A stretch of 14,641 nucleotides of DNA, from positions 1 through 14,641 of the IMG/VR virus record IMGVR_UViG_3300012347_000520; one strand, written 5' to 3'. The notes beneath the pieces are model-generated. The model searched no databases. It was not told the origin of the DNA and saw only the letters and a list, made by a program, of their open reading frames with translations. The stretch comes from a virus. Its lineage: Duplodnaviria; Heunggongvirae; Uroviricota; Caudoviricetes. Shown here in pieces: positions 1 through 14,641 of the stretch. The stretch's first letter is position 1. Every line of letters starts with the position of its first letter. A program made the position numbers and the translations under genes.

Positions 1-1
1 A

Positions 2-644: not shown

Positions 645-943
645 AACGAATTATCGACAACTTCCCCAGACTCAAAAACTTTTACGAGATCGGCCCCGTA
701 CAAAAAGCGGAACTAGAACAGTTCTTGGCAGATTTCTTAAGTTTAGGGTCTGCTATTACTTGCGACCACAAACTGGTAAAAGCTGGTGATCCTGTGTGGG
801 TTATCAGTTCCACAGGTATGCCCCAACAAACCACAGTTCAGCCGCTAGAGCACACTACTAGCTACGAGCTATTTGGACTCATTCCAGTTAAGCACAGCTT
901 TTCCTCAAAACAAGCTGCCCTACAGTACATCAAGGACCGATAA
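641..943 (+). CDS. hypothetical protein (100 aa)
   Basis: GAAGGA RBS; start/stop overlaps with both neighbours. Confidence 0.75.
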   Translation: MKRIIDNFPRLKNFYEIGPVQKAELEQFLADFLSLGSAITCDHKLVKAGDPVWVISSTGMPQQTTVQPLEHTTSYELFGLIPVKHSFSSKQAALQYIKDR

Positions 944-1140
944 TGGACAACCTAATTGTTAAAATTATAGTTGCGTTAATGATCCTAGTAGCTGGCATCG
1001 GTATCTACGGCATCATTGATAACAACCAGCGTACCGAAGACTGCAACAAAGCTAATGGCACAATGATTAACACACCTAAAGGAAACTTATGCGTCTTAAA
1101 TCTGGAAAAACTAACTACCAAGCCTACCCAGCCAAACTAA
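943..1140 (+). CDS. small protein with N-terminal TM/signal anchor
   Basis: AAGGA RBS, TAATG overlap, hydrophobic N-terminus, C-x(16)-C pair. Confidence 0.7.
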   Translation: MDNLIVKIIVALMILVAGIGIYGIIDNNQRTEDCNKANGTMINTPKGNLCVLNLEKLTTKPTQPN

Positions 1141-1232
1141 TTGATGATGACTTGCACTTTTGCTTATTCCTAGCAGGTGTAGGTTATCTAAGCTTTGTCG
1201 TGGGCTTAATCATAGGTGTTGTATGTCTTTAG
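1089..1232 (+). CDS. possible 47-aa single-TM protein, not in ORF track (MRLKSGK...FLAGVGYLSFVVGLIIGVVCL)
   Basis: AAGGA RBS before ATG 1089; hydrophobic C-terminal half fills the 1140-1223 gap; overlaps upstream gene by 52 nt. Confidence 0.4.
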   Translation: MRLKSGKTNYQAYPAKLIDDDLHFCLFLAGVGYLSFVVGLIIGVVCL

Positions 1233-1405
1233 TATTACCCAAACACATTACAAAGCACCAAAGCTTTTGGACAACCACAACACTCTTAGGCAATAAGCCT
1301 AAAATAACTCAAAAAACAGTGTTCTTTTGTCGCCACTGCGAAACCTTTTTAACCACCCCACAAGAATATGCCAAACATTCCACCACTTGCCACACAAGTC
1401 ATTAA
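1223..1405 (+). CDS. small zinc-finger-like protein (60 aa)
   Basis: AGGTG RBS before ATG 1223; CRHC-x(12)-H-x(3)-CH pattern. Confidence 0.55.
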   Translation: MSLVLPKHITKHQSFWTTTTLLGNKPKITQKTVFFCRHCETFLTTPQEYAKHSTTCHTSH

Positions 1406-1574
1406 ACACCGTTACTTTGCAGCGGCTATTTTATTCCTCATATACTGCCTAGCAATCTACACCCTGCCACAAACAATTCTCAATGCCGTTAACGCAGGCC
1501 TAGCAGGATACTTCGTTGGCACCAAAATCAAAACCCTTTCAGAACTTTACGAAACTTATGCAAACAAACTCTAA
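1368..1574 (+). CDS. small 2-TM membrane protein
   Basis: Two hydrophobic segments; lies within a tightly packed operon. Confidence 0.6.
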   Translation: MPNIPPLATQVIKHRYFAAAILFLIYCLAIYTLPQTILNAVNAGLAGYFVGTKIKTLSELYETYANKL

Positions 1575-1821
1575 ACAACAATACTACTTAGACAAGCTCC
1601 AAGAAGAAGCAGCAGAACTTATTCAAGCTGTGTCCAAGATTCGCCGATTTGGCCCAGACAACAAACACCCTGATCGCAATACTACTAATTTACAAGAGTT
1701 TGTTGGTGAAATTGAGGATGTTTTGGCCTTGTTAGCGTGTTTGGAAGGCGAGCAATTATTCGACCTAAACAAAAGCCAAGACGCTATCCTTAACAAGATT
1801 AAGTCTGTCTATAAAAACTGA
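1558..1821 (+). CDS. MazG-like all-alpha NTP pyrophosphohydrolase
   Basis: KLQEEAAELIQA...EFVGEIEDVLA gives the EExxE...ExxD acidic signature of the MazG-like superfamily; ATG 1558. Confidence 0.7.
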   Translation: MQTNSKQQYYLDKLQEEAAELIQAVSKIRRFGPDNKHPDRNTTNLQEFVGEIEDVLALLACLEGEQLFDLNKSQDAILNKIKSVYKN

Positions 1822-1893
1822 CCCTCAACCTAGTAAACCCCAAACAACCAAACATTTTTACTATAACAACACAAGCATAACTAAAAATACATC

Positions 1894-1922
1894 TTGAAAT
1901 TATCAAAAACGTGTGTTATAAT
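1894..1922 (+). promoter_or_regulatory. sigma70-type promoter
   Basis: TTGAAA-17-TATAAT with TGn extension. Confidence 0.75.
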
Positions 1923-2272
1923 ATATGAAATATTCTCCTAGAGAATAAATTAGAAGGTTTTAGAATAAAATCTTAGGGCTCTCGGTAGACGGTGTGGGTT
2001 TTACCCAACACCAACGGACGCAGACAGCCCACTAAGATTTTTGAATCTTAGAAACCTTCATAGGTTTATAACGAATGTTCAATTGAGGGTCATTGTTTTT
2101 GTTTGCTTTATAAATACATACTATAACGTTATTGTTATGGTATTTTTTATAACTAATAATTTGTCAAAATTATACAATAAAAACAAGCCGTCCCACTTTT
2201 GGCAACCATCGCTCTAGCAACTCGACCCTAGCTAGAGCAAGATTAGGGTCTTTTTCAGCTTTTTAGCTTATT

Positions 2273-3253
2273 ATGATTATTAACAAACAACTTAAATCCA
2301 TCCCATTCGATAAACTTTACCACATGTATGAAGAAGCAGCCGCTTCTGCAATTGCTGGTATTGAATCACACATCCAATCCAAGTACGATGCAGAAGTAGA
2401 GCGCTTAGAACAAGCCTATACAGATACTCACGAAGCTCCTAGTGAAGTAGGTTTTGGCGATCAGGTCGTCAGAGAAACTTATAACGCACATGAAGTACGT
2501 CGCAGAGCAGGTAATAAAGCAATTACCGACACTTGGATCCCTCGCTACAAATTAGGGTCATTGCTAATTGCAGTAATGCCTCAGATTATGGCTTATATCA
2601 CTCAAAAACCTTTTAGATTATCTGAGGTTTCTACGGTTGAGGGTAAGTGGATTAATGGAAAAACAATGCTCAAGAACTCCTTTGATTTTACCAGTGACTG
2701 GGATCGAGGACTTTACTGCTTTTTAATGTTAGACTCGCGTTCAGCATATTTACCTACGCAGTACAAAGGTGAGGGCAGACAATTCTGTAGTTTAGTTCCG
2801 CTAATTCCTTATGCGTACAAACTACACCACAAAATTAACTACTCCCAGTGGGATCGTAATACCTTACACTGGGTCGTAAATCCTAGTTTGTGTAATGCTA
2901 TGTTATACATTCCTGACAAAGCATACACTCGTGAAGAGCTAATTCACGCTAGAGAGCTTGGTTTAGTTTACCAAACAGGTGCCAAAGCAGGTGAATCACG
3001 TAATCCAGTTTCTACTTTTAAACTTTGGGCTACTAAAGGCGGATGTATGTCTGGTGTTCCTGATCTTGCTCAAGTAATGTACACTCAAATCTGGTGTGCT
3101 CACCCACAAAATCGTTCGCACTACATGGTCTTAGACCCTAAACACTGGGACACTATGCCAACACCGCTTATTAGCGAAAACATCTTTATGCCTCCAGAAA
3201 TCAAAGTTTCACAGCCTCAATTCACAGGCCTAGAACTGCCATGGGAGGTTTGA
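2273..3253 (+). CDS. homologue of the T5 pre-early ~330-aa hypothetical protein (gene 10-like); function unknown
   Basis: Recalled similarity in SLVPL...INYSQW, RNP, QIWCAH..R..YMVLD...WD.MP and terminal LPW motifs; no SD sequence visible. Confidence 0.65.
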   Translation: MIINKQLKSIPFDKLYHMYEEAAASAIAGIESHIQSKYDAEVERLEQAYTDTHEAPSEVGFGDQVVRETYNAHEVRRRAGNKAITDTWIPRYKLGSLLIAVMPQIMAYITQKPFRLSEVSTVEGKWINGKTMLKNSFDFTSDWDRGLYCFLMLDSRSAYLPTQYKGEGRQFCSLVPLIPYAYKLHHKINYSQWDRNTLHWVVNPSLCNAMLYIPDKAYTREELIHARELGLVYQTGAKAGESRNPVSTFKLWATKGGCMSGVPDLAQVMYTQIWCAHPQNRSHYMVLDPKHWDTMPTPLISENIFMPPEIKVSQPQFTGLELPWEV

Positions 3254-3255
3254 GC

Positions 3256-3576
3256 ATGAAGTACACTAACGAATCAACCAAAAAATTAGTTGCCGACTAC
3301 CAAGCCGGAGTGACCGTCCAAGCCCTAGCCCAAGAGCTCGAGGTGCCAGAAAGATCAATAATTGCCAAGCTTAGCAGCCTCGGAGTCTACCAAAAAAAGC
3401 AGTACTTGAACAAACGCGGTGAGGTGCCAACAAAAAAGGCCGAACACATTGAAAGAATCGCAGAATTGCTTGAAGTTAACCTTGAGCTACTAGAATCACT
3501 AGAAAAGGTCAATAAACAGGTTTTAATTATGATCGAACAGAATTTAACAGCAAAATCTGACCCTAAACCGCAATAA
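3256..3576 (+). CDS. T5 A2/D3-like HTH DNA-binding protein, paralogue 1
   Basis: GGAGG RBS before ATG 3256; shares Y-x-AG-V-x-V...RS(I/V)(I/V)AKLS..GVY...KK...LESLEK with three other copies. Confidence 0.7.
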   Translation: MKYTNESTKKLVADYQAGVTVQALAQELEVPERSIIAKLSSLGVYQKKQYLNKRGEVPTKKAEHIERIAELLEVNLELLESLEKVNKQVLIMIEQNLTAKSDPKPQ

Positions 3577-3602
3577 ATTGCGTTAAATTGACTTAATCAA
3601 AC

Positions 3603-3639
3603 AAAAAGCCCGATATCGCAAGATATTCGGGCTTTTTTT
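3603..3639. terminator. bidirectional rho-independent terminator
   Basis: AAAAAGCCCGA-TATC-GCAA-GATA-T-TCGGGCTTTTTTT. Confidence 0.85.
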
Positions 3640-3768
3640 GGTCTGCGTTTTATACGGCAAATTGGGTGCTGAAAGCACCAACTAGCCCAATTTAGGCACA
3701 GCTTGATGCCGCTGCCAAAGGTTCTCAAAGTTTATACAGTTTAGGGTCAGAGTAATAGGAAAACCCAC

Positions 3769-3856
3769 TTGACAAAATCAGTTTAGTACTGGTATAATGG
3801 CGCGGATAGTTTAACCAAAACAAAAGCCCCCAAACTCGAAAGTAAGGAGGCTTTTG
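3769..3856 (+). promoter_or_regulatory. module M0 (divergent copy): promoter, GGCGC, hairpin
   Basis: TTGACA 3769-3774, 18-nt spacer, TATAAT 3793-3798, GGCGCG, AAAACAAAAG, stem CAAAAGCC(3821-3828)/GGCTTTTG(3849-3856). Confidence 0.7.
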
Positions 3857-3859
3857 AAC

Positions 3860-4650
3860 GCGCGTTTTTAACTCAACCTCAGGGCTTATAAAGCTGGTCT
3901 TCAGCCTGACCCTAAACCACGGTTACCTCGAGGGCACCATTACTGCTCGAGTTTACGGATACGGGGAGTTTTAGTTTTACGTCGGACGACGGCACGCAAA
4001 GCTTTTACAACCGGAGCGGCTTATGGTTGGGCTACAGTTTAGCCACTGCTACATGTGCTGCTCAAGTTTTATGACTTTGTGCAGTTTAGGGTCGGTGCGC
4101 TAGCGGGGTATCATCCCGCGTTACTGGCTAGGCCAGGTCTTAGATCAGATGATAGCGTCTGTATTTTATACTGTTCTTTCAGTTCCCAGTTTAGTCGTGA
4201 CCCGATCATAGCGGAGCGGGGCCTTAGGTATAGGGTAGGCTACCTAGGAGTTACTAGCTTCCATTCCAGCGTACGCGATGGCAGCTCATATGGGATTCGT
4301 CCTGACCCTAAACTGCGCCAGCGGAGTAGCGGGGAACTACTCGCACACTGGCCCGAGGCTTAGAGTTTCGCTGAAATTGCATCAGCTCATCAGAGGGATA
4401 GGGGGGCGGTGACTAGAGGCTTCGGTCACCATCAAGTTGTTATCTCTAGTCTAGGACTAGAGTCTCATAACACCAAAAAAAGTAGGGACAGCGACTCGAT
4501 TCGGCACTATTAAGACGCTATCAGCTTGCTATATGTTTTATGCTGTTCGCTGTCATCCCGTAAATAATTATAACACGAAACCGACTTTAGAAGAAAGTAA
4601 ATAATTTATAATGTTAGAGTCGGTTTCGGTTGTTATCTTGTTTTCGATAC
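3860..4650. other. ORF-free, GC-richer, multi-hairpin region (candidate structured RNA or injection-stop/origin-like DNA)
   Basis: Several stem-loops; three GACCCTAAAC sites; flanked by convergent promoters. Confidence 0.45.
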
Positions 4651-4654
4651 AATA

Positions 4655-4683
4655 ATTATATCAATAAAAAGGTCAAGCATCAA
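4655..4683 (-). promoter_or_regulatory. sigma70-type promoter with no downstream ORF
   Basis: Minus strand TTGATG-17-TATAAT. Confidence 0.6.
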
Positions 4684-4708
4684 GTTTAAATTTCTTGACC
4701 CTAAACCG

Positions 4709-5020
4709 TTAGTGTTTAACAGCTTTGGCAATCAGCTCGAGTGCATCTTTGGTAGCTTTTTCTAGAGACTCCAGCAATTCTTCGTTGGTACCAATAGCAA
4801 AGGCAATCTCTGCAATCAGCTCTGCTTTCTTTGGAGTTTGCTGACCTTTGGCTTTGGCCTTGGCTTGGTACACACCTTCGCGAGCCAGCTTTGCCACTAC
4901 TGATCGTGGGGATTTTTGCAAGCGTTGAGCAATTGCTTCTACAGTCTCGCCGCGTTGGTATGCCTCGACGACATCTTTGGTCATCTCGGGGGTATAGTTT
5001 TGTGCTTGTGCAGTCATCAT
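4709..5020 (-). CDS. A2/D3-like DNA-binding protein, paralogue 2
   Basis: AAAGGA RBS; own promoter; KSPRSVVAKLAREGVY...KKAELIAEIA...LESLEKATK. Confidence 0.8.
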   Translation of the reverse strand: MMTAQAQNYTPEMTKDVVEAYQRGETVEAIAQRLQKSPRSVVAKLAREGVYQAKAKAKGQQTPKKAELIAEIAFAIGTNEELLESLEKATKDALELIAKAVKH

Positions 5021-5059
5021 ATGTCCTTTCGTTTTGGTTTCTGCGCTGTCTAAGTATTA

Positions 5060-5088
5060 ATTATACTATCAAAAGGGAACATCGTCAA
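5060..5088 (-). promoter_or_regulatory. sigma70-type promoter for 4709-5020
   Basis: TTGACG-17-TATAAT. Confidence 0.8.
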
Positions 5089-5203
5089 ATTCAAAAATTT
5101 CCGCTTGTTGGTTGGTATTTGGCAAATTTTTTGACAACTCTGTTTGTACAAATTCTTGGAACCACTGTTCCTGATTTAACATGAAAAAATCCGTGTCTTC
5201 CAT
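5069..5203 (-). CDS. 44-aa acidic peptide ending EIFEFDDVPF (SSB C-terminal tail mimic); not in ORF track
   Basis: MEDTDFFMLNQEQWFQEFVQTELSKNLPNTNQQAEIFEFDDVPF; AGGAG RBS; own promoter. Confidence 0.75.
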   Translation of the reverse strand: MEDTDFFMLNQEQWFQEFVQTELSKNLPNTNQQAEIFEFDDVPF

Positions 5204-5230
5204 AAGCCAGTATCTCCTGTTGATGTAATA

Positions 5231-5259
5231 ATTATATCAAAATCAATTCTGCACTTCAA
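5231..5259 (-). promoter_or_regulatory. sigma70-type promoter for the 44-aa ORF
   Basis: TTGAAG-17-TATAAT. Confidence 0.75.
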
Positions 5260-5546
5260 ATAAATAAATTTCAAGTTGACACTGCACTAAGCCTGTAACA
5301 ACATGGTCAAATTTGCACTTGACTGCGCACTGGCGCGGCACCACTAAAAATTTAGAATTGCCACTTTCCCACTGGCGCAGCGCGCTTGTGTAGTACGAAA
5401 GTACTCTTTTTCATAATGTGGCAGACCGCTTCATCAGGTGAAATTTTATGGTAATTTTTAATTTTGCATCAATAATTATTGATTATTAATTACGGGCGTG
5501 GCGCAAGAATCATGCCAGAGTAAATTACTCGGATATAAAAAAATTC

Positions 5547-5639
5547 TTGACACCTGCCCCAAAATTGTGGTACAATTTTGGCGCCTGAAAATGAATACTT
5601 TTGTTTCCAATATTTTCTGGAAACAAAAGTATTCATTTT
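5547..5639 (+). repeat. module M1: promoter, -10 palindrome, GGCGCC, perfect 22-bp inverted repeat
   Basis: TTGACA 5547-5552, TACAAT 5571-5576; arms AAAATGAATACTTTTGTTTCCA 5588-5609 and 5618-5639. Confidence 0.9.
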
Positions 5640-5647
5640 TTAAGCAT

Positions 5648-5709
5648 AAAAAAACCCGCCAAAAGGCGGGGGAAATTCCAAACCCAAAAATTTTGGGTTT
5701 TGGTTTTTT
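5648..5709. terminator. tandem terminator hairpins, one per strand
   Basis: CCCGCC-AAAA-GGCGGG preceded by an A-run (minus strand); AAACCCAAAA/TTTTGGGTTT followed by a T-run (plus strand). Confidence 0.75.
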
Positions 5710-5721
5710 CATTTTTGATAA

Positions 5722-6063
5722 TTAAACGGGCTTAGAATTTGCCAATGCTTTAAAAATCTTTTCCAATGCGGTTTTATTCGCTTTAGTCAGTGATTCGGTT
5801 TCGGCTTCGGTCAAATTCAAAACCGCGCCGATTGCATCCGCGTGCGCGTCTTTGCGAACCACGGGTGCGCCCGTTTTGGTTTTGTATTCTTTAGCCTTAT
5901 AGACTTTTTCGCGTGAAAGTTTGGCCACAATAGAGCGGACAGATTTACCCAATTCAGCGGCGATTGTTTCCACGGCCACGCCCGCAGAATAATCGGCCAC
6001 CATTTTAGCGGTTTGTTCGGCGGTGTAGTTAACAGAACGGGCAGAGACAGATTTGCTAGTCAT
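5722..6063 (-). CDS. A2/D3-like DNA-binding protein, paralogue 3
   Basis: AAGGA RBS; TTGAAA-17-TATAAT promoter (6086-6114); closely similar to 10835-11158. Confidence 0.85.
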   Translation of the reverse strand: MTSKSVSARSVNYTAEQTAKMVADYSAGVAVETIAAELGKSVRSIVAKLSREKVYKAKEYKTKTGAPVVRKDAHADAIGAVLNLTEAETESLTKANKTALEKIFKALANSKPV

Positions 6064-6129
6064 TTTCGTTTTCCTTTAAAATTAAATTATAACACAGATT
6101 TTTCAGATTTTCAAGATTTTTTAAATTAT

Positions 6130-6342
6130 TTACAAATAATTTACCAAACCGATTACGTTAGCCAAAAAGAACACAGTTTGCAGAGCAATGTAATTCTTTT
6201 GTTTCTGCTTAATGGCCGAAACCATTAAACAAAAAGAACTCACAAAAAAGAACGGGTAACCAAATTGTGCGAACTTTAACGCTACCAAAAACGCGCCAAT
6301 AATGCCAGTTATTGTGCCAATGGTTTCAAGAATTTTTGTCAT
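6130..6342 (-). CDS. 3-TM protein resembling the N-terminal half of PnuC (nicotinamide riboside transporter family)
   Basis: LETIGTITG..L.A...YPF..VS...LQTVF..NVIG pattern; three hydrophobic helices. Confidence 0.55.
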   Translation of the reverse strand: MTKILETIGTITGIIGAFLVALKFAQFGYPFFFVSSFCLMVSAIKQKQKNYIALQTVFFLANVIGLVNYL

Positions 6343-6441
6343 TTTGTTTTGCTCGTTTGTTTTGTTTTGCTATGTGCCAATTATACCACCAAATCGGGGC
6401 AAAAAACACAATTAATAAAATAATTCCATTTAAAAATTGTT

Positions 6442-6819
6442 TCATCGTTTTATGTCCATTGTGTGAAAAGGGTCAGCCCGTAGGCCGTAGTTTACCATAA
6501 TTTCGCACCATTTTTCGCCGTGTCCCGTTTTATCTTCGCTTTCACCGAAAAGGTTAAAATCGGCTTGATGGATAATTTCGTGAGGCAAAATAACGTCAAT
6601 CATATTATAGCAGAATTTTTTGCTATGCGTAAAAAATTTGTACCCTAATTCGATTTTGTTGTTTTCTTGATCTGCCAAGCCAGCCACGCGCCACAACCTA
6701 CCATTTAGGCTAATTTCGGGGCATTCGTAAAAAGCCAAGGCGGGATAAATTTCGCAAAGCGAATCCCAAACCATTGTGGATTCACGTTTTAGCAATCGGG
6801 TTAACATCGTTTTGTCCAT
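6442..6819 (-). CDS. SprT-like zinc metalloprotease (likely leaderless start MDKT at 6819)
   Basis: ILPHEIIHQ (HEXXH)...GHGEKW..IM, the SprT signature; I.L..KF motif upstream. Confidence 0.8.
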   Translation of the reverse strand: MDKTMLTRLLKRESTMVWDSLCEIYPALAFYECPEISLNGRLWRVAGLADQENNKIELGYKFFTHSKKFCYNMIDVILPHEIIHQADFNLFGESEDKTGHGEKWCEIMVNYGLRADPFHTMDIKR

Positions 6820-6909
6820 GTAAAGATTATACAACAAAAACCGCAAAAAATCCGTTTAGATCATTGAAAAAATTAATCGGGGCAATAGTGAAAATTAATT
6901 GCCAAATGC

Positions 6910-7003
6910 TTGACACACCCCAAAATTATATGCTATAATTTTGGCGCCCCAAAATGTAATACTTTTGTTTCCAATATTTTCTGGAAACAAAAGTATTCAT
7001 TTT
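6910..7003 (+). repeat. module M2
   Basis: TTGACA 6910-6915, 18 nt, TATAAT 6934-6939, GGCGCC, ACTTTTGTTT 6961-6970 / AAACAAAAGT 6985-6994. Confidence 0.9.
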
Positions 7004-7017
7004 ATTTCGGGCAAAAT

Positions 7018-7039
7018 AAAAAGCCCCGAAGGGCTTTTT
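7018..7039. terminator. bidirectional terminator
   Basis: AAAAAGCCC-CGAA-GGGCTTTTT. Confidence 0.8.
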
Positions 7040-7046
7040 AAAAGTG

Positions 7047-7304
7047 TTAACTTTTGTTTCTGGTGGGTTTTATTTTGTAAAACAAAATAACCAAAAGAAA
7101 AATTAAATTCGCGGTATAGTTGAAAACCAAAGGCCACAAAAGGGTTGGCAAAACGTAAACAAAAGTAAACACCTCGCCCCAAAACCACATGGCCAAAAAT
7201 CCCCACGTAAGACCATCCGAATTTTTTACGCGGTAACTTTCCACGGCTTGAGGCAACCCACAAAACGCAAAAAGAATTGAACCCAGCCAGCCGATTGTTT
7301 CCAT
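7047..7304 (-). CDS. PQ-loop / SemiSWEET-like 3-TM protein
   Basis: IGWLGSILFAFCGLPQ...KNSDGLTWGFL...N pattern typical of a PQ-loop repeat. Confidence 0.8.
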   Translation of the reverse strand: METIGWLGSILFAFCGLPQAVESYRVKNSDGLTWGFLAMWFWGEVFTFVYVLPTLLWPLVFNYTANLIFLLVILFYKIKPTRNKS

Positions 7305-7435
7305 TTTTAGCCCCTATAAATTTCGTCTACCGTTATTGTATTATAACACGATTCAAAAATAAATTCATCCAATAATTTTTTATCGTTGTATAAATGCAAC
7401 AAAAGAGCAAAAACCCACAAATATCTCATTTTTTA

Positions 7436-7459
7436 AATGTAGGCCTTTCGGCCTACATT
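7436..7459 (-). terminator. stem-loop after the exonuclease gene
   Basis: Perfect 10-bp stem AATGTAGGCC/GGCCTACATT with a GAAA loop on the minus strand; U-tract short. Confidence 0.55.
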
Positions 7460-7466
7460 CTCCACA

Positions 7467-8165
7467 TTATTTAGCTTGAAAGTGGTCACGGGTTTGAAAT
7501 TCGCGCCAGTTGTAAGGTGTAACCTTTTGTTTCCAATCGCGTTTTTTGATAATTTCGCGTAAAATCGGCAATTCAAAATCCCGCGCATCTTCTAAAGCCG
7601 TATGGGGTTCGTCTTTAAATTCGCCAGTAATAAACCCACAAACGATCTCGGCGTTTGTCTTAAAAGTCATATTGCCAAATTCAGTTGGGGCATTGAACGC
7701 ATGATTTTCTAAGCAAAATTGTTTGAATTTTTTAGTATTGCAAACATTACCAACGGCGGCCTGCCACAAACAAAAGTTATCAGAAAAACCGTCTAAATTA
7801 ATGCTTGTGTTTGCACATTTTGATTTATCAAAAGCCAAATTGTAAGCGGTCAAAGTTGGGTTATACTTGCCAATGGCTTGATTAATCCAGTTATTGATTG
7901 CAGAAACAGAAGCTAACATTCTAGAACCAGAATTAAGCATATCGTTGTATTTTGCGCGTTTTTCCTTGGCATATTGCAAAGACCAAAGACCCTTTGCATT
8001 TTTATCATAAAACAATTCGTGCGCGTCAAATTGATCTTTTACCAATACCGCGCATTGATTGTAGATTTTGCCTTCGCGATCACAAATTACAATGGCAAAA
8101 TCTGCCACAGTGTCAGCGATAGTTGTTTCAGTGTCAAGAATTGCAAAGAATTGTTTTTTAGCCAT
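7467..8165 (-). CDS. DEDDh (DnaQ-like) 3'-5' exonuclease
   Basis: ExoI LDTETT, ExoII AYNLAFD, ExoIII HTALEDA. Confidence 0.88.
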   Translation of the reverse strand: MAKKQFFAILDTETTIADTVADFAIVICDREGKIYNQCAVLVKDQFDAHELFYDKNAKGLWSLQYAKEKRAKYNDMLNSGSRMLASVSAINNWINQAIGKYNPTLTAYNLAFDKSKCANTSINLDGFSDNFCLWQAAVGNVCNTKKFKQFCLENHAFNAPTEFGNMTFKTNAEIVCGFITGEFKDEPHTALEDARDFELPILREIIKKRDWKQKVTPYNWREFQTRDHFQAK

Positions 8166-8186
8166 TTTGTTTTCAATTTTGAAATA

Positions 8187-8234
8187 TTACCGAATCTGTC
8201 GGAATTCGCAGATAGTAGCGTTTTTCGCTACCAT
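8187..8234 (-). CDS. possible leaderless 15-aa uORF (MVAKNATICEFRQIR)
   Basis: TATAAT-N6-ATG; may equally be non-coding leader. Confidence 0.3.
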   Translation of the reverse strand: MVAKNATICEFRQIR

Positions 8235-8333
8235 GAAAAGATTATAACGCAAAAAGCCCAAAAAATCCGCTTCTACCAAAAATAAATGAAATATTTATTT
8301 TGTTGTTTTTTGGCGAAATTAGGGTTTACCCTA

Positions 8334-8417
8334 TTGACACCCGCGCAATTTTACGAGTAAAATTGGCGCCTTTGGAAACAAAAGTATTCATTTTCAAAAT
8401 GTAACCTTTTGTTTCCA
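8334..8417 (+). repeat. module M3, with inverted-repeat arms in swapped order
   Basis: TTGACA 8334-8339, 18 nt, TAAAAT 8358-8363, TGGCGCC; TGGAAACAAAAGTATTCATTTT 8373-8394 then AAAATGTAACCTTTTGTTTCCA 8396-8417. Confidence 0.88.
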
Positions 8418-8424
8418 AAAAAGA

Positions 8425-8444
8425 AAAGCCCCTCGCGGGGCTTT
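8425..8444. terminator. bidirectional terminator
   Basis: AAAGCCCC-TCGC-GGGGCTTT. Confidence 0.75.
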
Positions 8445-8446
8445 GT

Positions 8447-8923
8447 TTAGTGACCTTGCACGCTTGGCACGTACACGCCTCGAATATTAAAACGATCACA
8501 AACCGCTTTTAGATAACTAATATTATCTTCGTAAAAAACAAAATCAGCGTCTTTGAAAGTTACCAAATTAAAGAACTTTGTCAAGCCATTAATTTTTAAG
8601 GTTTTGCCTGAAATATCCGAACCTTGGGGGCGTGAGATAAAATAATCGGGAGCGCCTAAAATATCATCAACAAATTGCCAATCGGGTTCATTCATTACCC
8701 GCGCAGTTGCAATAATGACATAACAATTTTCGTCTTTTAAGTCTTGGCGGTATTGCTCAAACATTGGCAATAATCCATCATCCATAGCGCGGTATTCATT
8801 TTCGCGCCAGTGGTCAAGGTCAATGCGCGTGCCGTTTTCATCCGTGATTGTGCGATAACGGTGTGAAGAATCTACGATTGTGCCATCCATGTCATAAATT
8901 GCTACGCGGGTAATTTTAGCCAT
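8447..8923 (-). CDS. dmp: HAD-family phosphatase, T5 Dmp-like deoxynucleoside-5'-monophosphatase
   Basis: YDMDGTIVDSSHR, IIATAR, YEDN HAD motifs; recalled similarity to T5 Dmp (WDLDGTIINSFHR...IICTAR); AAGGA RBS. Confidence 0.75.
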   Translation of the reverse strand: MAKITRVAIYDMDGTIVDSSHRYRTITDENGTRIDLDHWRENEYRAMDDGLLPMFEQYRQDLKDENCYVIIATARVMNEPDWQFVDDILGAPDYFISRPQGSDISGKTLKINGLTKFFNLVTFKDADFVFYEDNISYLKAVCDRFNIRGVYVPSVQGH

Positions 8924-8967
8924 TTTGTTTCCTTGTTTAGAAGATTAGATTATACCACAAATTTTCG

Positions 8968-9090
8968 TCATTCAGACAAAAATTGCTCTAATGCGCCCAA
9001 ATATTCTAGCATATTTGCGAATTGTAAGCCGTGGCGATCACAAAAGCGATCAAAGCGGGCAATCTGTGTTTTAGTGTATTTTGTTTTCAT
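8968..9090 (-). CDS. 40-aa leaderless ORF, not in ORF track (MKTKYTKTQIARFDRFCDRHGLQFANMLEYLGALEQFLSE)
   Basis: TATAAT-CTACAC-ATG; fills the gap between dmp and M4. Confidence 0.65.
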   Translation of the reverse strand: MKTKYTKTQIARFDRFCDRHGLQFANMLEYLGALEQFLSE

Positions 9091-9180
9091 GTGTAGATTA
9101 TAGCGCAAAAAATGGCAAAAAGCCGTTTCGATCATTAAAAAAATTAATCGCCCCGATAGCGAAAAACAATCGGAAAATTC

Positions 9181-9268
9181 TTGACAAACCCCAAAATTAT
9201 GTGGTATAATTTTGGCGCCTGAAAATGAGAACTTTTGTTTCTCATTTTCTTTGCAAACAAAAGTATTA
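9181..9268 (+). repeat. module M4
   Basis: TTGACA 9181-9186, 18 nt, TATAAT 9205-9210, GGCGCC, ACTTTTGTTT 9231-9240 / AAACAAAAGT 9255-9264. Confidence 0.9.
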
Positions 9269-9460
9269 CAAATCGTAAACCTTCATTGTGAGATTTAATT
9301 GCACAAAATGGGTTTCTTGATTTATAAAATCAACAATTAGCAAAATCTCGCCATTGTAAAATAATCCCGTATTGGCTTTAATTTCATTTTTTGCCGCTTC
9401 TACGGTCTTGAATGAAGGCCAACCATATACGCGCCCCTTTGTGTTGAATACATCGTACAT
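9266..9460 (-). CDS. hypothetical protein (64 aa, start MYDV)
   Basis: TAA-AA-ATG coupling to the upstream gene. Confidence 0.65.
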   Translation of the reverse strand: MYDVFNTKGRVYGWPSFKTVEAAKNEIKANTGLFYNGEILLIVDFINQETHFVQLNLTMKVYDL

Positions 9461-9462
9461 TT

Positions 9463-9753
9463 TTAATCCCAAGTTTTAAATTGCATCATAAAATCACGGG
9501 TTTGCCCGTTGAATTTCATTTTCACCCATTCTGGGTTTTCTTCAATTTTAATAGGCATATTTTCTGTAATAAATTCCTCCAACATATTAAAAAACCAGTT
9601 AGGAATAACAACAAAAACCCAAACCAGTGGCATGATAACAAAAACGCCAAAAAAGAATTTTAGCACGTTTTGCCAAGAATAAAAGTATTTGAATTTTACA
9701 ATCTGCCAGTTAGCACGTTTGATCTGCCAGAATTTTTTAGTGAGAATATTCAT
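9463..9753 (-). CDS. membrane-anchored hypothetical protein (start MNIL)
   Basis: GAAGGG RBS; one long hydrophobic segment; TATAAT at 9785-9790. Confidence 0.7.
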   Translation of the reverse strand: MNILTKKFWQIKRANWQIVKFKYFYSWQNVLKFFFGVFVIMPLVWVFVVIPNWFFNMLEEFITENMPIKIEENPEWVKMKFNGQTRDFMMQFKTWD

Positions 9754-9754
9754 T

Positions 9755-10108
9755 TTAAGACCCTTCCATTGAAACAATGTCCACATTATAGCACGTCAAA
9801 AAGTGTTTTCGCCATATTTCAAATTCTTTTTCGTGATCTAGTTCTTTGTCGTTTTCCATTTGCCAAGCATGAACATATTCATGTGCCATTGTAGCAAATA
9901 GGTCGATCTGATCTTTAATCTCAGATGTAGCTAAACGGATAATGTGAAAATGCTTTTTAGCATTGATTCTATAACCCTCATACACGGCAAAGCACGAAGC
10001 CCCATCCATGCGAATCACGCGATTCTTACGAAAGTTTACGTGACTTTTTAATTTGAAAATGTCTTGCAACATTAGCTGGAATAAGCGTACATCAACGGAT
10101 CGAATCAT
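9755..10108 (-). CDS. zincin-like metallopeptidase (SprT-related)
   Basis: TMAHEYVHAWQ...DHEKEF (HEXXH plus downstream H). Confidence 0.7.
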   Translation of the reverse strand: MIRSVDVRLFQLMLQDIFKLKSHVNFRKNRVIRMDGASCFAVYEGYRINAKKHFHIIRLATSEIKDQIDLFATMAHEYVHAWQMENDKELDHEKEFEIWRKHFLTCYNVDIVSMEGS

Positions 10109-10109
10109 T

Positions 10110-10289
10110 TTAGTCTACCTGAATATCAATGATTTCTGTTTGTTCTGGGTTCACAATGTAATAAATTGTAAGATTGCCCGCAGAAGCCATGTATGTGTTT
10201 TCGCGTGTCTTTGTGACAGTGTGAAAAGATTTGAAGTCTAAAGCCACGGCTTTAGCTACGATTTCGGGGATTGTGTTTTTCGTTGTCAT
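10110..10289 (-). CDS. hypothetical protein (likely leaderless start MTTK)
   Basis: TATACT-N6-ATG; TAA-A-ATG coupling to the next gene. Confidence 0.65.
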   Translation of the reverse strand: MTTKNTIPEIVAKAVALDFKSFHTVTKTRENTYMASAGNLTIYYIVNPEQTEIIDIQVD

Positions 10290-10380
10290 GTGTGTAGTAT
10301 ACCCCAATTTTCCTCAGTTGTCCCCAATTCGCCATTGTTATTTTCTATTGCCCCGATTAATAAAAACAATCACAAAACGC

Positions 10381-10468
10381 TTGACAACCCCCAATTATAC
10401 GTGGTATAATTGGCGCGTCCAAAATGAGAACTTTTGTTTCTCATTTTGTTTCGCAAACAAAAGTATTA
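10381..10468 (+). repeat. module M5
   Basis: TTGACA 10381-10386, 18 nt, TATAAT 10405-10410, TGGCGC, ACTTTTGTTT 10430-10439 / AAACAAAAGT 10455-10464. Confidence 0.9.
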
Positions 10469-10780
10469 AAATAATACCCTTGTATCTTCTTCGTTAAGTG
10501 TAACGGGGTCGCCGTGTTTGGCTAATTTCAAAAGTTTTTGAGCGTGGTCAAGATCGCCCCAAGCATACACGGAACGCCACCCCCAACAGTCCGAATTATC
10601 AAGCGCCTTAATTGCTTGCTCCTCGGTCATGTAATAAAACCCGCGCCAACCTAATGCGCGCCGCGCCATGCGCTTTGCGATTGCTTTATCGTCTCGCGCT
10701 TTGCGATGCGCCTTGATGTGTTCAATTACATTTTCGCAGGCTTTGATAACCTTTGCGGATTCCATTACAATAGTTGCCAT
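10466..10780 (-). CDS. hypothetical protein (104 aa)
   Basis: AAGGG RBS; extended -10 TGaTATAAT at 10804-10809. Confidence 0.75.
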   Translation of the reverse strand: MATIVMESAKVIKACENVIEHIKAHRKARDDKAIAKRMARRALGWRGFYYMTEEQAIKALDNSDCWGWRSVYAWGDLDHAQKLLKLAKHGDPVTLNEEDTRVLF

Positions 10781-10812
10781 GATGTGCCCTTGTTGAAAGT
10801 TACATTATATCA

Positions 10813-10833
10813 CAAAGGGGCATTGCCCCTTTG
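10813..10833 (-). terminator. hairpin after paralogue 4
   Basis: CAAAGGGGCA-T-TGCCCCTTTG. Confidence 0.6.
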
Positions 10834-10834
10834 C

Positions 10835-11158
10835 TTATTGCTTCTCAGCCTTGATAAAATCAGCAATTGCTTTCAATGCTGTTTTGTTGGCCTTGGTAAG
10901 CGAATCCGCATCCGCTTCGCTCAAGCCCAAAGCCTGTGCGATTGCGTCAGCAAATTCGTCTTTTTTAACAACGGCCTCGCCTGTCTTGGTTTTGTATTCC
11001 TTGGCCTTGTAAACCTTCTCGCGTGAAAGTTTAGCAACAACAGAGCGCACAGATTTGCCAAGCTCGGCGGCCATAGCTTCAACAGTTACGCCTTGCAGGT
11101 AGTCAGCAACCATTTTAGTAGTTTGCTCGGGGGTGTAGTTTACGGCTTTTGCAGTCAT
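10835..11158 (-). CDS. A2/D3-like DNA-binding protein, paralogue 4
   Basis: GGAG RBS; TTGCAT-17-TATACT promoter (11201-11229); ELGKSVRSVVAKLSREKVYKAKEYKTKTG nearly identical to paralogue 3. Confidence 0.85.
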   Translation of the reverse strand: MTAKAVNYTPEQTTKMVADYLQGVTVEAMAAELGKSVRSVVAKLSREKVYKAKEYKTKTGEAVVKKDEFADAIAQALGLSEADADSLTKANKTALKAIADFIKAEKQ

Positions 11159-11177
11159 TTTAAATTCTCCTAAAAAG

Positions 11178-11270
11178 TTAAGGTTTCATCACAAAAACAA
11201 AGTATAACACAAACGGCAAGGCAATGCAAGCGGCAAAGGCCAAAGCATCTAAAGTTTGTTTGATTGTCAT
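11178..11270 (-). CDS. 30-aa single-TM peptide, not in ORF track (MTIKQTLDALAFAACIALPFVLYFVFVMKP)
   Basis: AAGGA RBS; TTGTTT-17-TATAAT promoter (11299-11327). Confidence 0.6.
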   Translation of the reverse strand: MTIKQTLDALAFAACIALPFVLYFVFVMKP

Positions 11271-11499
11271 TTGTATCATTCCTTGTTGCGATGGAATTAT
11301 TATAACGCATAAATCATAGAAAAACAAGATTATTTCAATTATTTTCTAGAGATAAACACCTATAGATTTTGTGCTAGTTTAGTGCTATAATGACTAGGGG
11401 CGGTTATTAGACTCAAGTTTTCACACACACGTGGGGGCCCTACCCCACGGAAAACTTCATAGATAATTCTCATAAACACACAAGGTGCTAAACTATAGC

Positions 11500-11570
11500 C
11501 TAACTGACCCTAAACTGCCCCTAACTACCCAATCTCACCAAACTACCCAAACCCCCCCAAACCTCCCTAA
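11500..11570. repeat. C/A-rich degenerate ~10-bp tandem tract
   Basis: C-runs at 11508, 11518, 11528, 11546, 11552, 11565; almost no G on the plus strand. Confidence 0.65.
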
Positions 11571-11581
11571 AAAAATTCAAC

Positions 11582-11611
11582 TTGCCTAAATACTTGCCCC
11601 CGTGGTATACT
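11582..11611 (+). promoter_or_regulatory. promoter for terS-terL
   Basis: TTGCCT-18-TATACT with TGG extension. Confidence 0.65.
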
Positions 11612-11630
11612 TGCCCCAAAGGATGGATCT

Positions 11631-12137
11631 ATGACCCAATTACCCCAAACACAACCTACCTCTGCGCCTGCCGAGGTATTGCAAATTTCCCCTGAGAACC
11701 TGGAAATTGCCAACGCATTCCTGCAACTACAAGATTCACAAAAAGTTGCCTATGAGCTAGATATTCCCGTGGACATGGTTACCCGAGTTTTAGCCCGTGC
11801 CGAGATAAAGGCTTATGTTAACCAAGTTTTCTTTGAAGTCGGCTTTAACAACCGTTTTCAAATGCGCGAGCTTATGGATACCTTAATTAAGAAAAAGCTT
11901 CAAGACATGTCAGAGTCTGAAACAGGAAGCAATAAGGATATCTTAGATATTCTCGCTCAATCACATAAAATGACCATGGAGCTCATGGACAAAGAAATCC
12001 AGCTTGAAAAACTACGTGCTCAAAATGCAGCAGCCGGAATTAAGTCGCAAGTCAACGTACAAATCAACGAAGGACTCGGTGACGGTACCAAGTACGGTGC
12101 CTTAATATCCAAGTTGATTTCTGGAGAGTCTCAATAA
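11631..12137 (+). CDS. terS: terminase small subunit (T5-type)
   Basis: Directly upstream of terL; N-terminal HTH; recalled T5 TerS similarity (GF.NR, KKL.., DI.DIL..HKM, QVNVQIN). Confidence 0.8.
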   Translation: MTQLPQTQPTSAPAEVLQISPENLEIANAFLQLQDSQKVAYELDIPVDMVTRVLARAEIKAYVNQVFFEVGFNNRFQMRELMDTLIKKKLQDMSESETGSNKDILDILAQSHKMTMELMDKEIQLEKLRAQNAAAGIKSQVNVQINEGLGDGTKYGALISKLISGESQ

Positions 12138-13424
12138 ATGTTAACTATCTCTAGACCAGATGTTGAGCGCGAAGCAATTACAGAGTTTGCAGCTGACAAA
12201 CGATTTATTAAGCTGCCGATTACCAACTACCTTAAATTGCTAGGAATCTGGGAAACTATCAACGAGCCCCAAATTGCGTTAATTAACGCAGTCAACGACC
12301 CTAAGTACCGTTTTGTTTGTGCTGCCTTAGCACGTCGTCTTGGTAAAACTTATATTGCCAACGTTATCGGGCAACTAGTTACACTTGTCCCAGGTGCTAA
12401 CGTATTAATTATATCGCCAAACTACAACTTATCAACAATTTCGTTTGAGTTACAGCGTCGTTTAATCAAACACTTTGACTTAGAAATTTCTCGTGATAAC
12501 TTAAAGGATCGCATTATCGAGCTATCAAATGGTTCGACCATTAGAATGGGTTCGTTATCTACAGTGGATAGTTGTGTTGGTAGGAGCTATGACTTGATTA
12601 TTTTTGACGAAGCGGCTTTGGGAGCCGATGGTGAAGCCGCGTTTAACGTTGCCTTACGCCCTACACTAGACAAGCCTAATTCTAAGGCTATTTTTATTTC
12701 CACGCCTCGTGGTAAAAACAACTGGTTCTCCAGATTTTTTGAGCGTGGATTCTCGGCGGACTTTCCAGAGTGGTGTTCGATTACAGCTGACTACACAGAG
12801 AATGCTCGTATGGCTGAGTCGGACGTTGCAGAAGCTCGTAAGTCAATGTCAAAAGCTGAATTCGAACAAGAATACATGGCCTCATTTAATACGTTTGAAG
12901 GTCAGATTTATCAGCTTGAAGAGCAGCAGATCTTAGACTACGTTCCCTTAGACGGCGATGAATCTATTGCTGGCTGTGACCCTGGTTATCGTGATGCCAC
13001 GGCGTTTGTGGTATTAATCTACCAAACACAAACTGATAAGTTTCATGTGGTTGATGAGTACCTAAAATCCGAAGCTACCACAGACAAGCATGCTGAAGCG
13101 TTTCAGGAACTTATTTCTAAATGGGGCATAGATGCGATCTTTATTGACTCTGCAGCGCCACAGTTTGCGTCAGACTTAGCTTATCTTTATGACATTGCGT
13201 CAATTAAAGCTAAAAAAGACGTACTACCTGGAATCGCGTATGTTCAAACCTTAATCGAAACTGGTCGTTTAGTAGTTGCTCCACACTGTACACATACCCT
13301 AGCTATGCTAGACCAGTACCGCTGGGATACTCGCGAAACCTTGACTATGGAAAAGCCAATCCATGATGAATATTCTCACATGGCTGACGCGCTCCGATAC
13401 GCTTTGTATACTTATACTCTTTAA
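12138..13424 (+). CDS. terL: terminase large subunit (T5-type)
   Basis: Walker A ARRLGKT, Walker B LIIFDEAA, ISTPRG coupling motif, RNase H-like nuclease GCDPG...SHMADALRY. Confidence 0.96.
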   Translation: MLTISRPDVEREAITEFAADKRFIKLPITNYLKLLGIWETINEPQIALINAVNDPKYRFVCAALARRLGKTYIANVIGQLVTLVPGANVLIISPNYNLSTISFELQRRLIKHFDLEISRDNLKDRIIELSNGSTIRMGSLSTVDSCVGRSYDLIIFDEAALGADGEAAFNVALRPTLDKPNSKAIFISTPRGKNNWFSRFFERGFSADFPEWCSITADYTENARMAESDVAEARKSMSKAEFEQEYMASFNTFEGQIYQLEEQQILDYVPLDGDESIAGCDPGYRDATAFVVLIYQTQTDKFHVVDEYLKSEATTDKHAEAFQELISKWGIDAIFIDSAAPQFASDLAYLYDIASIKAKKDVLPGIAYVQTLIETGRLVVAPHCTHTLAMLDQYRWDTRETLTMEKPIHDEYSHMADALRYALYTYTL

Positions 13425-13511
13425 CTAAACTCAAGTAATTATTCCTTATTTTATCATATCTAAGTGTTATGTTCAAATCAATATTTCACACCTGGTGAAA
13501 AATTTTCGTAG

Positions 13512-13540
13512 TTGACATTTCCCTGCTCCGGTGATATAAT
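13512..13540 (+). promoter_or_regulatory. sigma70-type (late) promoter
   Basis: TTGACA-17-TATAAT with TGa extension. Confidence 0.85.
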
Positions 13541-13572
13541 AGGAATAATTACAAAAACGTGCCTAAAAATTA

Positions 13573-13995
13573 ATGGCTAAAAATACGAATAACCGCATCC
13601 CTGTCAAATGGATCAGGGACAAAGCAAAAGCAGCTTACGAGAAACAATCCCACTGTTACGTCTGTAGCAAAACGGAAGATCTCGAACTGCATCACCTTCA
13701 TTCCATTACTATACTGTTGAACCGTTGGGCTGATCGCAAAGGATATGATATATCCACAGACGACGGAATCTTAGCTGTTAGAGATGAGTTTATTGCGGAA
13801 CATCGGATTGAGTTATATGACTTGGTTTACACTTTGTGTAACAAGCACCATGTAGCTTTACACGGCGTTTATGGCAAGGCTCCTGCTTTCGGTAGCGAAG
13901 AACGACAGAAAAACTGGATTGAAAAACAAAAAGCTAAAGCTGAGGGAAGAGCTCCTGCACAGGATTCTTTATCGCTCTTTGGCAAATTCTTGTAA
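13573..13995 (+). CDS. HNH endonuclease, T5 nicking-endonuclease-like
   Basis: CYVC...LELHHLH...TLCNKHHVALH; same terL-nickase-portal synteny as T5. Confidence 0.85.
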   Translation: MAKNTNNRIPVKWIRDKAKAAYEKQSHCYVCSKTEDLELHHLHSITILLNRWADRKGYDISTDDGILAVRDEFIAEHRIELYDLVYTLCNKHHVALHGVYGKAPAFGSEERQKNWIEKQKAKAEGRAPAQDSLSLFGKFL

Positions 13996-14004
13996 AGGAC
14001 AACC

Positions 14005-14641
14005 ATGAGTTGGTATAATCCAAGCACATGGGCTGCTGATCTCCGAGAAAAACTTAATCCAGCGCAACAAGTTATTGGTCGTGAACAAGGCGTGTACATT
14101 GGTACCGATTCTTCAATTACCTACAAAACTGCGTTTGAAAAGCTTGAGACTGTAAGCCGTGGCGTTAATATGATCGTGTCAGGCTGCGCAAGCTTAGACT
14201 ACGATATCAAAGATAAAAAATTAGATGGTGTTGTAAATGGCGTGCGTCAAAAGACGTTAGCTACATTACTAAACTATGTCCCTAACCCGTATCAATCGGC
14301 ACAGGACTTTAGAATAAACATTTTTACTGACTTCATTCTAGAAGGTAACGTGTTTATTTACTACGATGGTGTACATTTATACCATTTACCTGCATCTAAC
14401 GTACAAATTGAAACTGACCCTAAAACGTTTGTGGCTGCATATCGCTACAATACGTCAATACTGTTCAAACCGTCAGAAATCATTCATATCAAAGATCTTT
14501 CTGCATCTAGCATTTATCGTGGAAGTTCACGTTTAATGAGTGCCGACAGAAACATCAAAATCTTGTATAAAATGCAAACGTTCCAAGAACAATTCTTCGA
14601 GAACGGTGCAGTTTCAGGATTGATCTTAACTAGTGATAATA
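14005..14641 (+). CDS. portal protein (T5-type), runs off window; not in ORF track
   Basis: AAGGA RBS; open frame MSWYNP...EKLNPAQ...PNPYQ...LEGNVFIYYDG...FFENGAVSGLIL. Confidence 0.92.
   Translation, partial: MSWYNPSTWAADLREKLNPAQQVIGREQGVYIGTDSSITYKTAFEKLETVSRGVNMIVSGCASLDYDIKDKKLDGVVNGVRQKTLATLLNYVPNPYQSAQDFRINIFTDFILEGNVFIYYDGVHLYHLPASNVQIETDPKTFVAAYRYNTSILFKPSEIIHIKDLSASSIYRGSSRLMSADRNIKILYKMQTFQEQFFENGAVSGLILTSDN

Follow-up and report, generated by a model that had tools for sequence, protein, structure and literature searches.

The first 14.6 kb of a 78.6-kb virus contig in IMG/VR (IMGVR_UViG_3300012347_000520; completeness estimate 74%), a stretch of 14,641 nucleotides that we call the window, carries repeated copies of a 10-mer, GACCCTAAAC, hereafter the word. 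The word is a real, conserved DNA signal, and the phage that carries it is one of a group of uncultured freshwater T5-like phages. Copies in mixed orientation gather in a region free of open reading frames (ORFs) between two convergent operons, which we call the hub, and ~15 further copies per genome are dispersed on the two arms, pointing away from the hub on both. We consider it very probable that the word acts as a DNA signal whose effect depends on orientation and whose reader moves along the DNA, either away from the hub or toward it.

The window holds nine exact copies at the sites given in the original prediction, a reading of the bare sequence, six of them on the plus strand (3134, 3559, 3908, 4304, 4697 and 11506) and three on the minus strand (741, 3739 and 4084), against 0.01 expected; none of 200 dinucleotide shuffles reached nine. 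The near-copies that it listed were recovered as well, those at 1820, 2241 and 14416 with one mismatch and those at 2082, 2224, 2550 and 12297 with two mismatches or as core copies. The enrichment also extends beyond the window: no other 10-mer is as frequent in the 78.6-kb contig as GACCCTAAAC (12 copies; none of the reversed word, used as a control), and four related genomes have 7–11 copies each, compared with 0–1 for the reversed word. It likewise withstood the codon-preserving shuffle that the original prediction had named as its check. For GACCCTAA, the core used for site scoring, ten sense-strand sites were found over all called genes in each of two genomes, against 2.3 (G000) and 2.7 (G003) expected from synonymous-codon shuffles, of which 0/300 reached ten (a ~4-fold enrichment of coding copies). 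This shuffle ruled out a codon artefact (Asp-Pro-Lys) as the sole cause of the word.

From 86 distinct sites, the full signal was derived as yTGACCCTAA(A/G)(C/T)YG, which is ~13 bp long and asymmetric. Ten of its positions are invariant and the flanks are biased at −2, −1, +10, +11 and +12, G being almost excluded at −1 and +10; the GT-rich strand of the word reads GTTTAGGGTC. A search with TerL provided 80 IMG/VR relatives, among which those covering the 7–9 kb upstream of terL, down to ~75% TerL identity, have the word at the same places, and 13 further loci were found via a conserved hairpin of the hub. The signal is kept in more than 15 uncultured relatives.

The orientation of the copies is most clearly seen in G003, a relative assembled complete (102 kb) and turned here to the orientation of the window. 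The GACCCTAA sites of this genome lie on the minus strand to the left of the hub (9/9) and on the plus strand to its right (5/5, out to 73 kb), alternate within the hub, and are on the minus strand again past the late/early junction (3/3), so that all 17 core sites outside the hub are consistent with their arm. On the circular map of G003, the hub is at ~39.4 kb, and both gene strand and word polarity switch a second time at 91.5 kb, opposite the hub. The same arm polarity was found in G000, G001, G002 and G004, and the total reaches 72/72 sites outside the hubs, counted over five related genomes that are not phylogenetically independent. The zone in which the polarity switches is 1–3 kb wide, hub included.

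Over most of the genome the polarity of the word coincides with the sense strand, where it is mostly in frame as Asp-Pro-Lys. Nevertheless, eight coding sites in the ~10-kb block of plus-strand genes to the left of the hub are antisense to the genes yet consistent with the arm, including those at 741 and 2550 of the window and one inside a 301-amino-acid ORF of G001. As these eight antisense sites obey the arm, the polarity is set by the DNA arm and not by transcription, and the antisense coding copies rule out a signal in sense-strand RNA. Individual sites come and go: the site in terL of the window is not kept in the relatives, in which Asp-Pro-Lys stays and the codons vary. Density and direction are thus maintained while single positions turn over, and this is, by analogy, the behaviour of Chi or of the FtsK-orienting polar sequences (KOPS), unlike that of operators.

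The word had further been described as bracketing, but never entering, a block of genes, and this holds in all five genomes examined. In the window, no exact, one-mismatch or 8-mer-core copy lies within 4707–11505, and the direct copies 4697 (+) and 11506 (+) flank this interval. The minus-strand block between hub and terS (6.6 kb) is free of exact, one-mismatch and core copies in all five genomes, and 1–4 sites per genome lie in the plus-strand block across the hub. Given the related genomes, there is moderate evidence that the copy-free block reflects real avoidance, possibly owing to its membership in a terminal repeat or to a fast turnover of cassettes. The copies of the window that lie outside the hub are as follows.

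741–750, minus strand: exact copy, antisense within the plus-strand ORF 641–943; left-arm polarity.
1820–1829, plus strand: near-copy GACCCTCAAC at the left edge of the zone of mixed orientation.
2224–2250: near-copies GACCCTAGC ... GATTAGGGTC, inverted and with a T run after them, that form the stem of a terminator-like hairpin 3′ of ORF 2041–2217.
2550–2559, minus strand: core copy GACCCTAATT, antisense within the gene for a 326-amino-acid protein; left-arm polarity.
3134–3143, plus strand: exact copy in the same gene, in the frame Asp-Pro-Lys.
11506–11515, plus strand: exact copy in a divergent intergenic region, 125 nt upstream of terS.
12297–12304, plus strand: core copy in terL (Asp-Pro-Lys).
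14416–14425, plus strand: near-copy GACCCTAAAA in the portal gene; right-arm polarity.

The variant GACCCTCAAC recurs at the hub boundaries of relatives, and a copy at the 11506 position is present in at least four of them. Besides these, one further promoter-linked copy lies in the promoter spacer of the gene for the NAD-dependent DNA ligase (exact in G002 and G003, one mismatch at 71495 in G000). The ligase is split in G000 (316 and 252 amino acids), and its promoter (71478–71504, minus strand) places TATAAT ~9 nt before the ATG, the gene apparently being leaderless.

The hub is flanked by genes for small helix-turn-helix (HTH) proteins. Four such proteins match phrog_1725 (3241–3576 on the plus strand; 4709–5020, 5722–6063 and 10835–11158 on the minus strand), as does A2 of phage T5 itself (E = 4e-52), and by these matches they are assigned to the T5 A2 family. 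The hub and its surroundings are laid out as follows.

1–3576, plus strand: genes.
3559–3568, plus strand: exact copy that makes up the final codons of the A2-like gene 3241–3576; position kept in relatives.
3577–4708: hub, ORF-free and GC-richer, with convergent operons on either side.
3739–3748, minus strand: exact copy, 20 nt upstream of the −35 box of P(+); near-invariant in relatives.
3769–3798, plus strand: promoter P(+), TTGACA-18-TATAAT with TG; sigma-70, 12/12 consensus.
3908–3917, plus strand: exact copy, in a convergent pair with 4084.
4084–4093, minus strand: exact copy, the partner of 3908.
4292–4401, minus strand: hammerhead candidate with open helix I, core CUGAUGA, helix II, GAAA, long helix III and a GUC cleavage site.
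4304–4313, plus strand: exact copy; its minus strand supplies the cleavage C and the 3′ strand of hammerhead helix III.
4655–4683, minus strand: promoter P(−), TTGATG-17-TATAAT with TG; kept in relatives and reading the hammerhead strand.
4697–4706, plus strand: exact copy, 13 nt upstream of the −35 box of P(−) and 2 nt past the stop of the A2-like gene 4709–5020.
4709–11310, minus strand: gene block with three A2-like paralogues, a dmp-like gene (phrog_415), a SprT-like gene and others.
Right of the minus-strand block: terS onward.

The six hub copies of the window (3559+, 3739−, 3908+, 4084−, 4304+ and 4697+) follow a pattern that is the same in every relative; their number is 6–9 per genome, in alternating orientation, and the architecture is kept in more than 15 relatives. 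Otherwise, the DNA of the hub aligns poorly between relatives, and what is conserved are the word copies and a few RNA-like islands. Convergent pairs of the 3908/4084 type are spaced 106–228 bp apart in relatives. That GTTTAGGGTC lies just upstream of both convergent promoters was borne out, as it ends 20 nt before the −35 box of P(+) (3769) and 13 nt before that of P(−) (4683), and both spacings are conserved in relatives. A promoter element was ruled out, since the distance from the word to the −10 box varies (3 and 11 nt for copies in or beside a spacer) and either orientation occurs; at P(+) and P(−) the word sits upstream of the −35 box, unlike the copies in or beside promoter spacers. 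A 140-bp AT-rich stretch occupies 4560–4700.

Several other features of the hub deserve record. P(+) and P(−) are convergent and ~850 bp apart, and their transcripts would be fully complementary. A conserved hairpin, AAAAGCCCC...GGGGCTTTT, is found within 20 nt 3′ of P(+) and makes a better terminator when read on the minus strand, and a covarying hairpin (4583–4637) is located 3′ of P(−). The ORF 4055–4363 (+; 102 amino acids), which overlies the ribozyme region, has a translated match in one relative only and is probably not a gene.

The copy at 4304 overlaps an RNA element, as the region 4292–4401 is a covariation-supported hammerhead ribozyme candidate, for which self-cleavage is predicted. 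Its cores are invariant in 11 lineages and the cleavage triplet is GUC; helix III contains an insertion of ~45 nt. In the alignment, 89.8% of the pair cells are paired and 15 of the 26 pairs show compensatory double changes, a level of pairing that none of 500 shuffles reached (slid controls, 27–47%). Where the copy in helix III has drifted in relatives (e.g., GACCCTCAAC and GACCCCAAGG), the partner strand has changed with it. A tRNA-Glu(UUC) lies directly 5′ of the ribozyme in four relatives (L010, L034, L044 and L046). The candidate scored 19.5 bits with the Rfam Hammerhead_3 model, not reaching the gathering threshold of 48.5 bits, and the tRNA-linked form had no match in Rfam. Substrates in trans were ruled out, as the contig has a single hammerhead core and the mRNAs carry the wrong strand. 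Because the sequence of helix III is free in hammerheads, the simplest explanation would be a ribozyme that arose on top of a DNA site already required at this place. One DNA word would also serve as a strand of a predicted ribozyme.

Judged from its gene neighbourhood, the hub appears to be the positional counterpart of Repeat Region 3 of T5. In T5 (NC_005859), this untranslated region, annotated as an injection-stop signal, is situated where the terminal repeat has its inner end and is flanked by convergent operons; 3 kb separate terS from the start of the repeat, and the gene order matches that of the window. The hub shares with the T5 injection stop both its position between convergent operons and its neighbours of the A2 and dmp families, the gene 8447–8923 matching phrog_415, the family of T5 dmp. 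The DnaA-box model of the T5 injection stop was ruled out here, as the window has no DnaA box (TTWTNCACA; 2.5 expected). By synteny with T5, we infer that the genome termini lie near the hub.

For the nature of the tracking reader, we tentatively favour a Chi-like signal for a helicase-nuclease that enters at genome ends near the hub, a reading that we hold to be plausible but short of an even chance. A DNA-tracking helicase-nuclease, either of the host (RecBCD/AddAB type) or encoded by the phage, would enter at the genome ends and recognize a Chi-like signal in the GT-rich strand (5′-GTTTAGGGTC-3′), and this signal would limit the degradation of linear phage DNA and direct its ends to recombination or replication. 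The hub would be within the terminal repeat or next to it and would need both orientations because the terminal repeat sits at both ends of the molecule. Here we infer both who the reader would be and what reading the signal would do. The word is over-represented and biased in orientation relative to the arms, as is expected for Chi. If the ends are close to the hub, which is what the synteny with T5 suggests, the GT-rich strand would have its 3′ end toward the entry end and would therefore be in the active orientation for entry from either end. Precedents exist in the lambdoid phages LLS and MD8, which have 23–32 Chi words with a strong orientation bias, clustered near one end, the Chi word being the commonest octamer of MD8 (PMC12315714). 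In T5, we found eight words of E. coli Chi (~1 expected from base composition), seven of them in one orientation and two in the terminal repeat, 1.5–2.1 kb from the right end. How T5 DNA escapes RecBCD and its own degradation of host DNA is an open question (10.1101/866236).

Several observations speak against a Chi-like signal. The signal, with 10 invariant bases plus flanks, is longer than any known Chi (5–8 nt) and is not a short word of that kind. Copies in the hub are fixed in position and distance at two promoters, and another is in the spacer of the DNA-ligase promoter, both of which are operator-like traits. The 'active orientation' is taken from the synteny with T5. The empty 6.6-kb block beside the hub is not predicted by a Chi-like model, the Chi words of T5 itself show a single polarity instead of two arms, and the polarity of the word would be equally compatible with a replication origin or terminus at the hub. 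A genome of a sister clade, G005, has neither the hub nor an analogous word. A different use of a tracking nuclease is also conceivable, albeit improbable: the word may be a phage-specific 'self' mark, i.e., a polar 13-bp signal that is too long to occur by chance in the host and that halts a processive nuclease, sparing phage DNA during the destruction of the host chromosome. The nuclease could be the phage's own T5 A1-type degrader of host DNA, or RecBCD altered by the phage, with the two-orientation hub of the terminal repeat as the first checkpoint at both ends. If this is the case, the mark would explain how T5-like phages tell their own unmodified DNA from that of the host.

Other explanations place the reader elsewhere. 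It is possible, though in our view unlikely, that the hub is the origin or terminus of bidirectional replication and that the replisome reads the word, either as a preferred site of primase or helicase on one of the template strands or as a Ter/Tus-like barrier that stops forks from one side and is bound by a monomeric phage protein. Two-arm polarity is typical of replication-oriented words, and the hub of G003 indeed lies opposite the second switch of gene strand and word. The hub is ORF-free, with strong flanking promoters, an AT-rich stretch, asymmetric repeats pointing both ways and genes for DNA-binding proteins alongside, and a copy within the ligase promoter is a Ter-like trait. The 3′ end of the GT-rich strand, GGGTC, is a recognition site of T7 primase. 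CCTAAAG repeat arrays of T7 adjoin its terminal repeat. Nevertheless, no initiator, Tus-like protein or other reader was identified, the window is devoid of the DnaA boxes mentioned above, the GC skew tracks gene strand only, and one site per 5–8 kb is too sparse for routine priming. For T5, moreover, origins near the middle of the molecule have been reported (10.1101/866236). Somewhat more doubtful than a replication element is an operator or architectural site for an A2-family HTH protein. Such a protein would regulate both convergent promoters, possibly through DNA loops that join inverted sites, and perhaps also the transfer of DNA, as in the second-step transfer of T5. This would suit the four A2-family paralogues within 8 kb, two of which abut hub copies, the copies that all relatives have 20 and 13 nt before the −35 boxes, the copy in the spacer of the leaderless ligase promoter, and the clade that has a different hub together with different repeats, CTTATATAAG. 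It leaves the strict arm polarity, the 4-fold coding enrichment and the site turnover unexplained; A2-family genes also occur in clades without the word, and an activator is unneeded where both promoters are already at consensus. The copies are not confined to promoters with conserved positions and an orientation tied to the promoter, as operators would be; most are in coding DNA, follow the arm and turn over. The three promoter-linked ones do fit an operator, and the copies at P(+), P(−) and the ligase gene keep an operator role for the A2 family possible as a second or combined function.

Two further readings appear very unlikely. T5-like phages have localized nicks (PMC10644984), and the word might, by analogy with T5 and BF23, be the recognition element for site-specific single-strand nicks in virion DNA. 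The hub word of T5, GGATTYGCAC, is found 18 times, in each case on the nicked (minus) strand, and nine of these copies are at 9.75–10.49 kb astride the repeat boundary; one copy is 4 nt from the annotated 7.9% nick and two are ~360 bp from the annotated 64.8% nick. T5 is nicked on one strand only, however, whereas the word studied here switches strand between the arms; it also has no GCGC requirement and is unrelated to the T5 nick consensus (Pu/GCGC). A literature search on phage nick motifs returned nothing useful. The least probable of all the readings makes the word an RNA-level element, at which mRNAs and the convergent transcripts of the hub would pair or be processed. The copy at 4304 does form a helix III strand and the GUC site of the hammerhead, with a partner strand that compensates its drift, and alternating copies in one transcript could pair. 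The copies upstream of the promoters, by contrast, are invariant and not covarying, the eight coding copies to the left of the hub are antisense to their genes, and the contig has one hammerhead core. Among the three roles proposed in the original prediction, the Chi/KOPS-like signal thus fits best, on account of an arm polarity independent of gene strand and of turnover with the density kept. A binding site for an A2-like protein would not be expected to show the polarity and turnover of the dispersed copies and stays possible for the hub promoter copies and the ligase copy, and the nick site has the T5 analogy as its sole basis.

In the window, TerS, TerL and portal are encoded at 11.6–14.6 kb; the closest cultured TerL proteins, from Vibrio T5-like phages, are ~50% identical, and a megablast search of the window against cultured phages gave no match. 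The 326-amino-acid protein (2273–3253, plus strand) has more than 140 metagenomic homologues, always encoded just upstream of the A2-like gene on the hub side and diverging fast. It has no Pfam or PHROG family, and its AlphaFold model, which is confident and mostly helical (predicted local distance difference test score 80.6), matched no fold in PDB at E below 2; a search for related loci probed with this protein gave no match either. No tRNA was detected in the window, and no Rfam family reached the threshold in a scan of the window and the hub. The minus-strand gene block holds perfect or near-perfect plus-strand consensus promoters (5547, 6910, 8334, 9181 and 10381), each followed by a palindrome with GGAAACAAAAGTATTCATTT (e.g., 6958–6997), the word that ranks second in over-representation in the contig. 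Directly 5′ of the terS promoter is a tract (11490–11575, plus strand) that is poor in G and rich in C/A and has CCCTAA-like repeats, and the copy at 11506 is at the start of this tract.

Among known systems, Repeat Region 3 of T5 with its DRD repeats (10.1101/866236; NC_005859) resembles the hub in being ORF-free over ~1.1–1.2 kb, in lying between convergent operons with genes of pre-early type (A2 and dmp families), and in being packed with a phage-specific repeated word that has further copies elsewhere in the genome. The T5 word, GTCGGATTTGCACA, is nevertheless unrelated in sequence, and all its copies are direct and on one strand, only three of them being dispersed. The T5 region has DnaA boxes, of which the window has none, and the hub in turn has two convergent consensus promoters and a hammerhead candidate, unlike the T5 region. 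Within the wider group of phages the hub varies by clade. In the sister genome G005, merely 120 bp separate the convergent A2-like genes, the word is at background (3 copies), and the search for an analogous word found none. In another sister clade (L061, 170–1460; L063, 1200–2200; L068, 480–1700), a different hub follows the same A2-like gene, composed of tandem promoter-like modules, GGTTTTGCACTGGCGCAG, and 4–5 copies of the palindrome CTTATATAAG, and neither GACCCTAAAC nor a hammerhead core was found in these hubs. Between genomes that have the word and those that lack it, gene content differed in too many respects for a reader to be singled out.

The hammerheads of bacteria and phages (Rfam RF00163, RF00008 and RF02276; PMC3088659) share with the candidate, and hence with copy 4304 only, the CUGAUGA and GAAA cores, three covarying helices and the GUC triplet. 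The candidate differs from them in the ~45-nt insertion in helix III, the sub-threshold Rfam score and the tRNA-Glu directly upstream in some relatives. KOPS, the SpoIIIE recognition sequences (SRS), other skewed 'architecture-imparting' octamers and Ter sites are, like the word, asymmetric and independent of gene orientation, and they flip direction at two opposite points of the replicon. KOPS, SRS and Ter are, however, bacterial elements read by FtsK/SpoIIIE or Tus, and the density of the word is below that of KOPS. We know of no FtsK/SpoIIIE- or Tus-like reader in T5-like phages.

What is new here is the arm polarity of 72/72 sites, its independence of gene strand, the enrichment in coding regions, the turnover of sites and the empty 6.6-kb block in five genomes. 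The word would mark the starting point or the goal of some machine that runs along the DNA. The linear DNA that T5-like phages inject is unmodified, and these phages survive RecBCD and destroy the host chromosome; both their self-protection and the role of the injection stop have been unsolved questions for decades (10.1101/866236). With its change of direction at an injection-stop-like region, a conserved, phage-specific word offers a concrete, mutable handle on both questions. The Chi-rich lambdoid phages remain the closest parallel, as they too have an over-represented word with a strong orientation bias, a cluster near a presumed end, copies within genes and a GT-rich active strand. The word described here, known from sequence alone, differs from theirs in its length (10–13 bp instead of 5–8), its two-arm instead of one-arm polarity and its alternating cluster, and it extends the finding made in lambdoid phages to another phage family and to a longer type of word.

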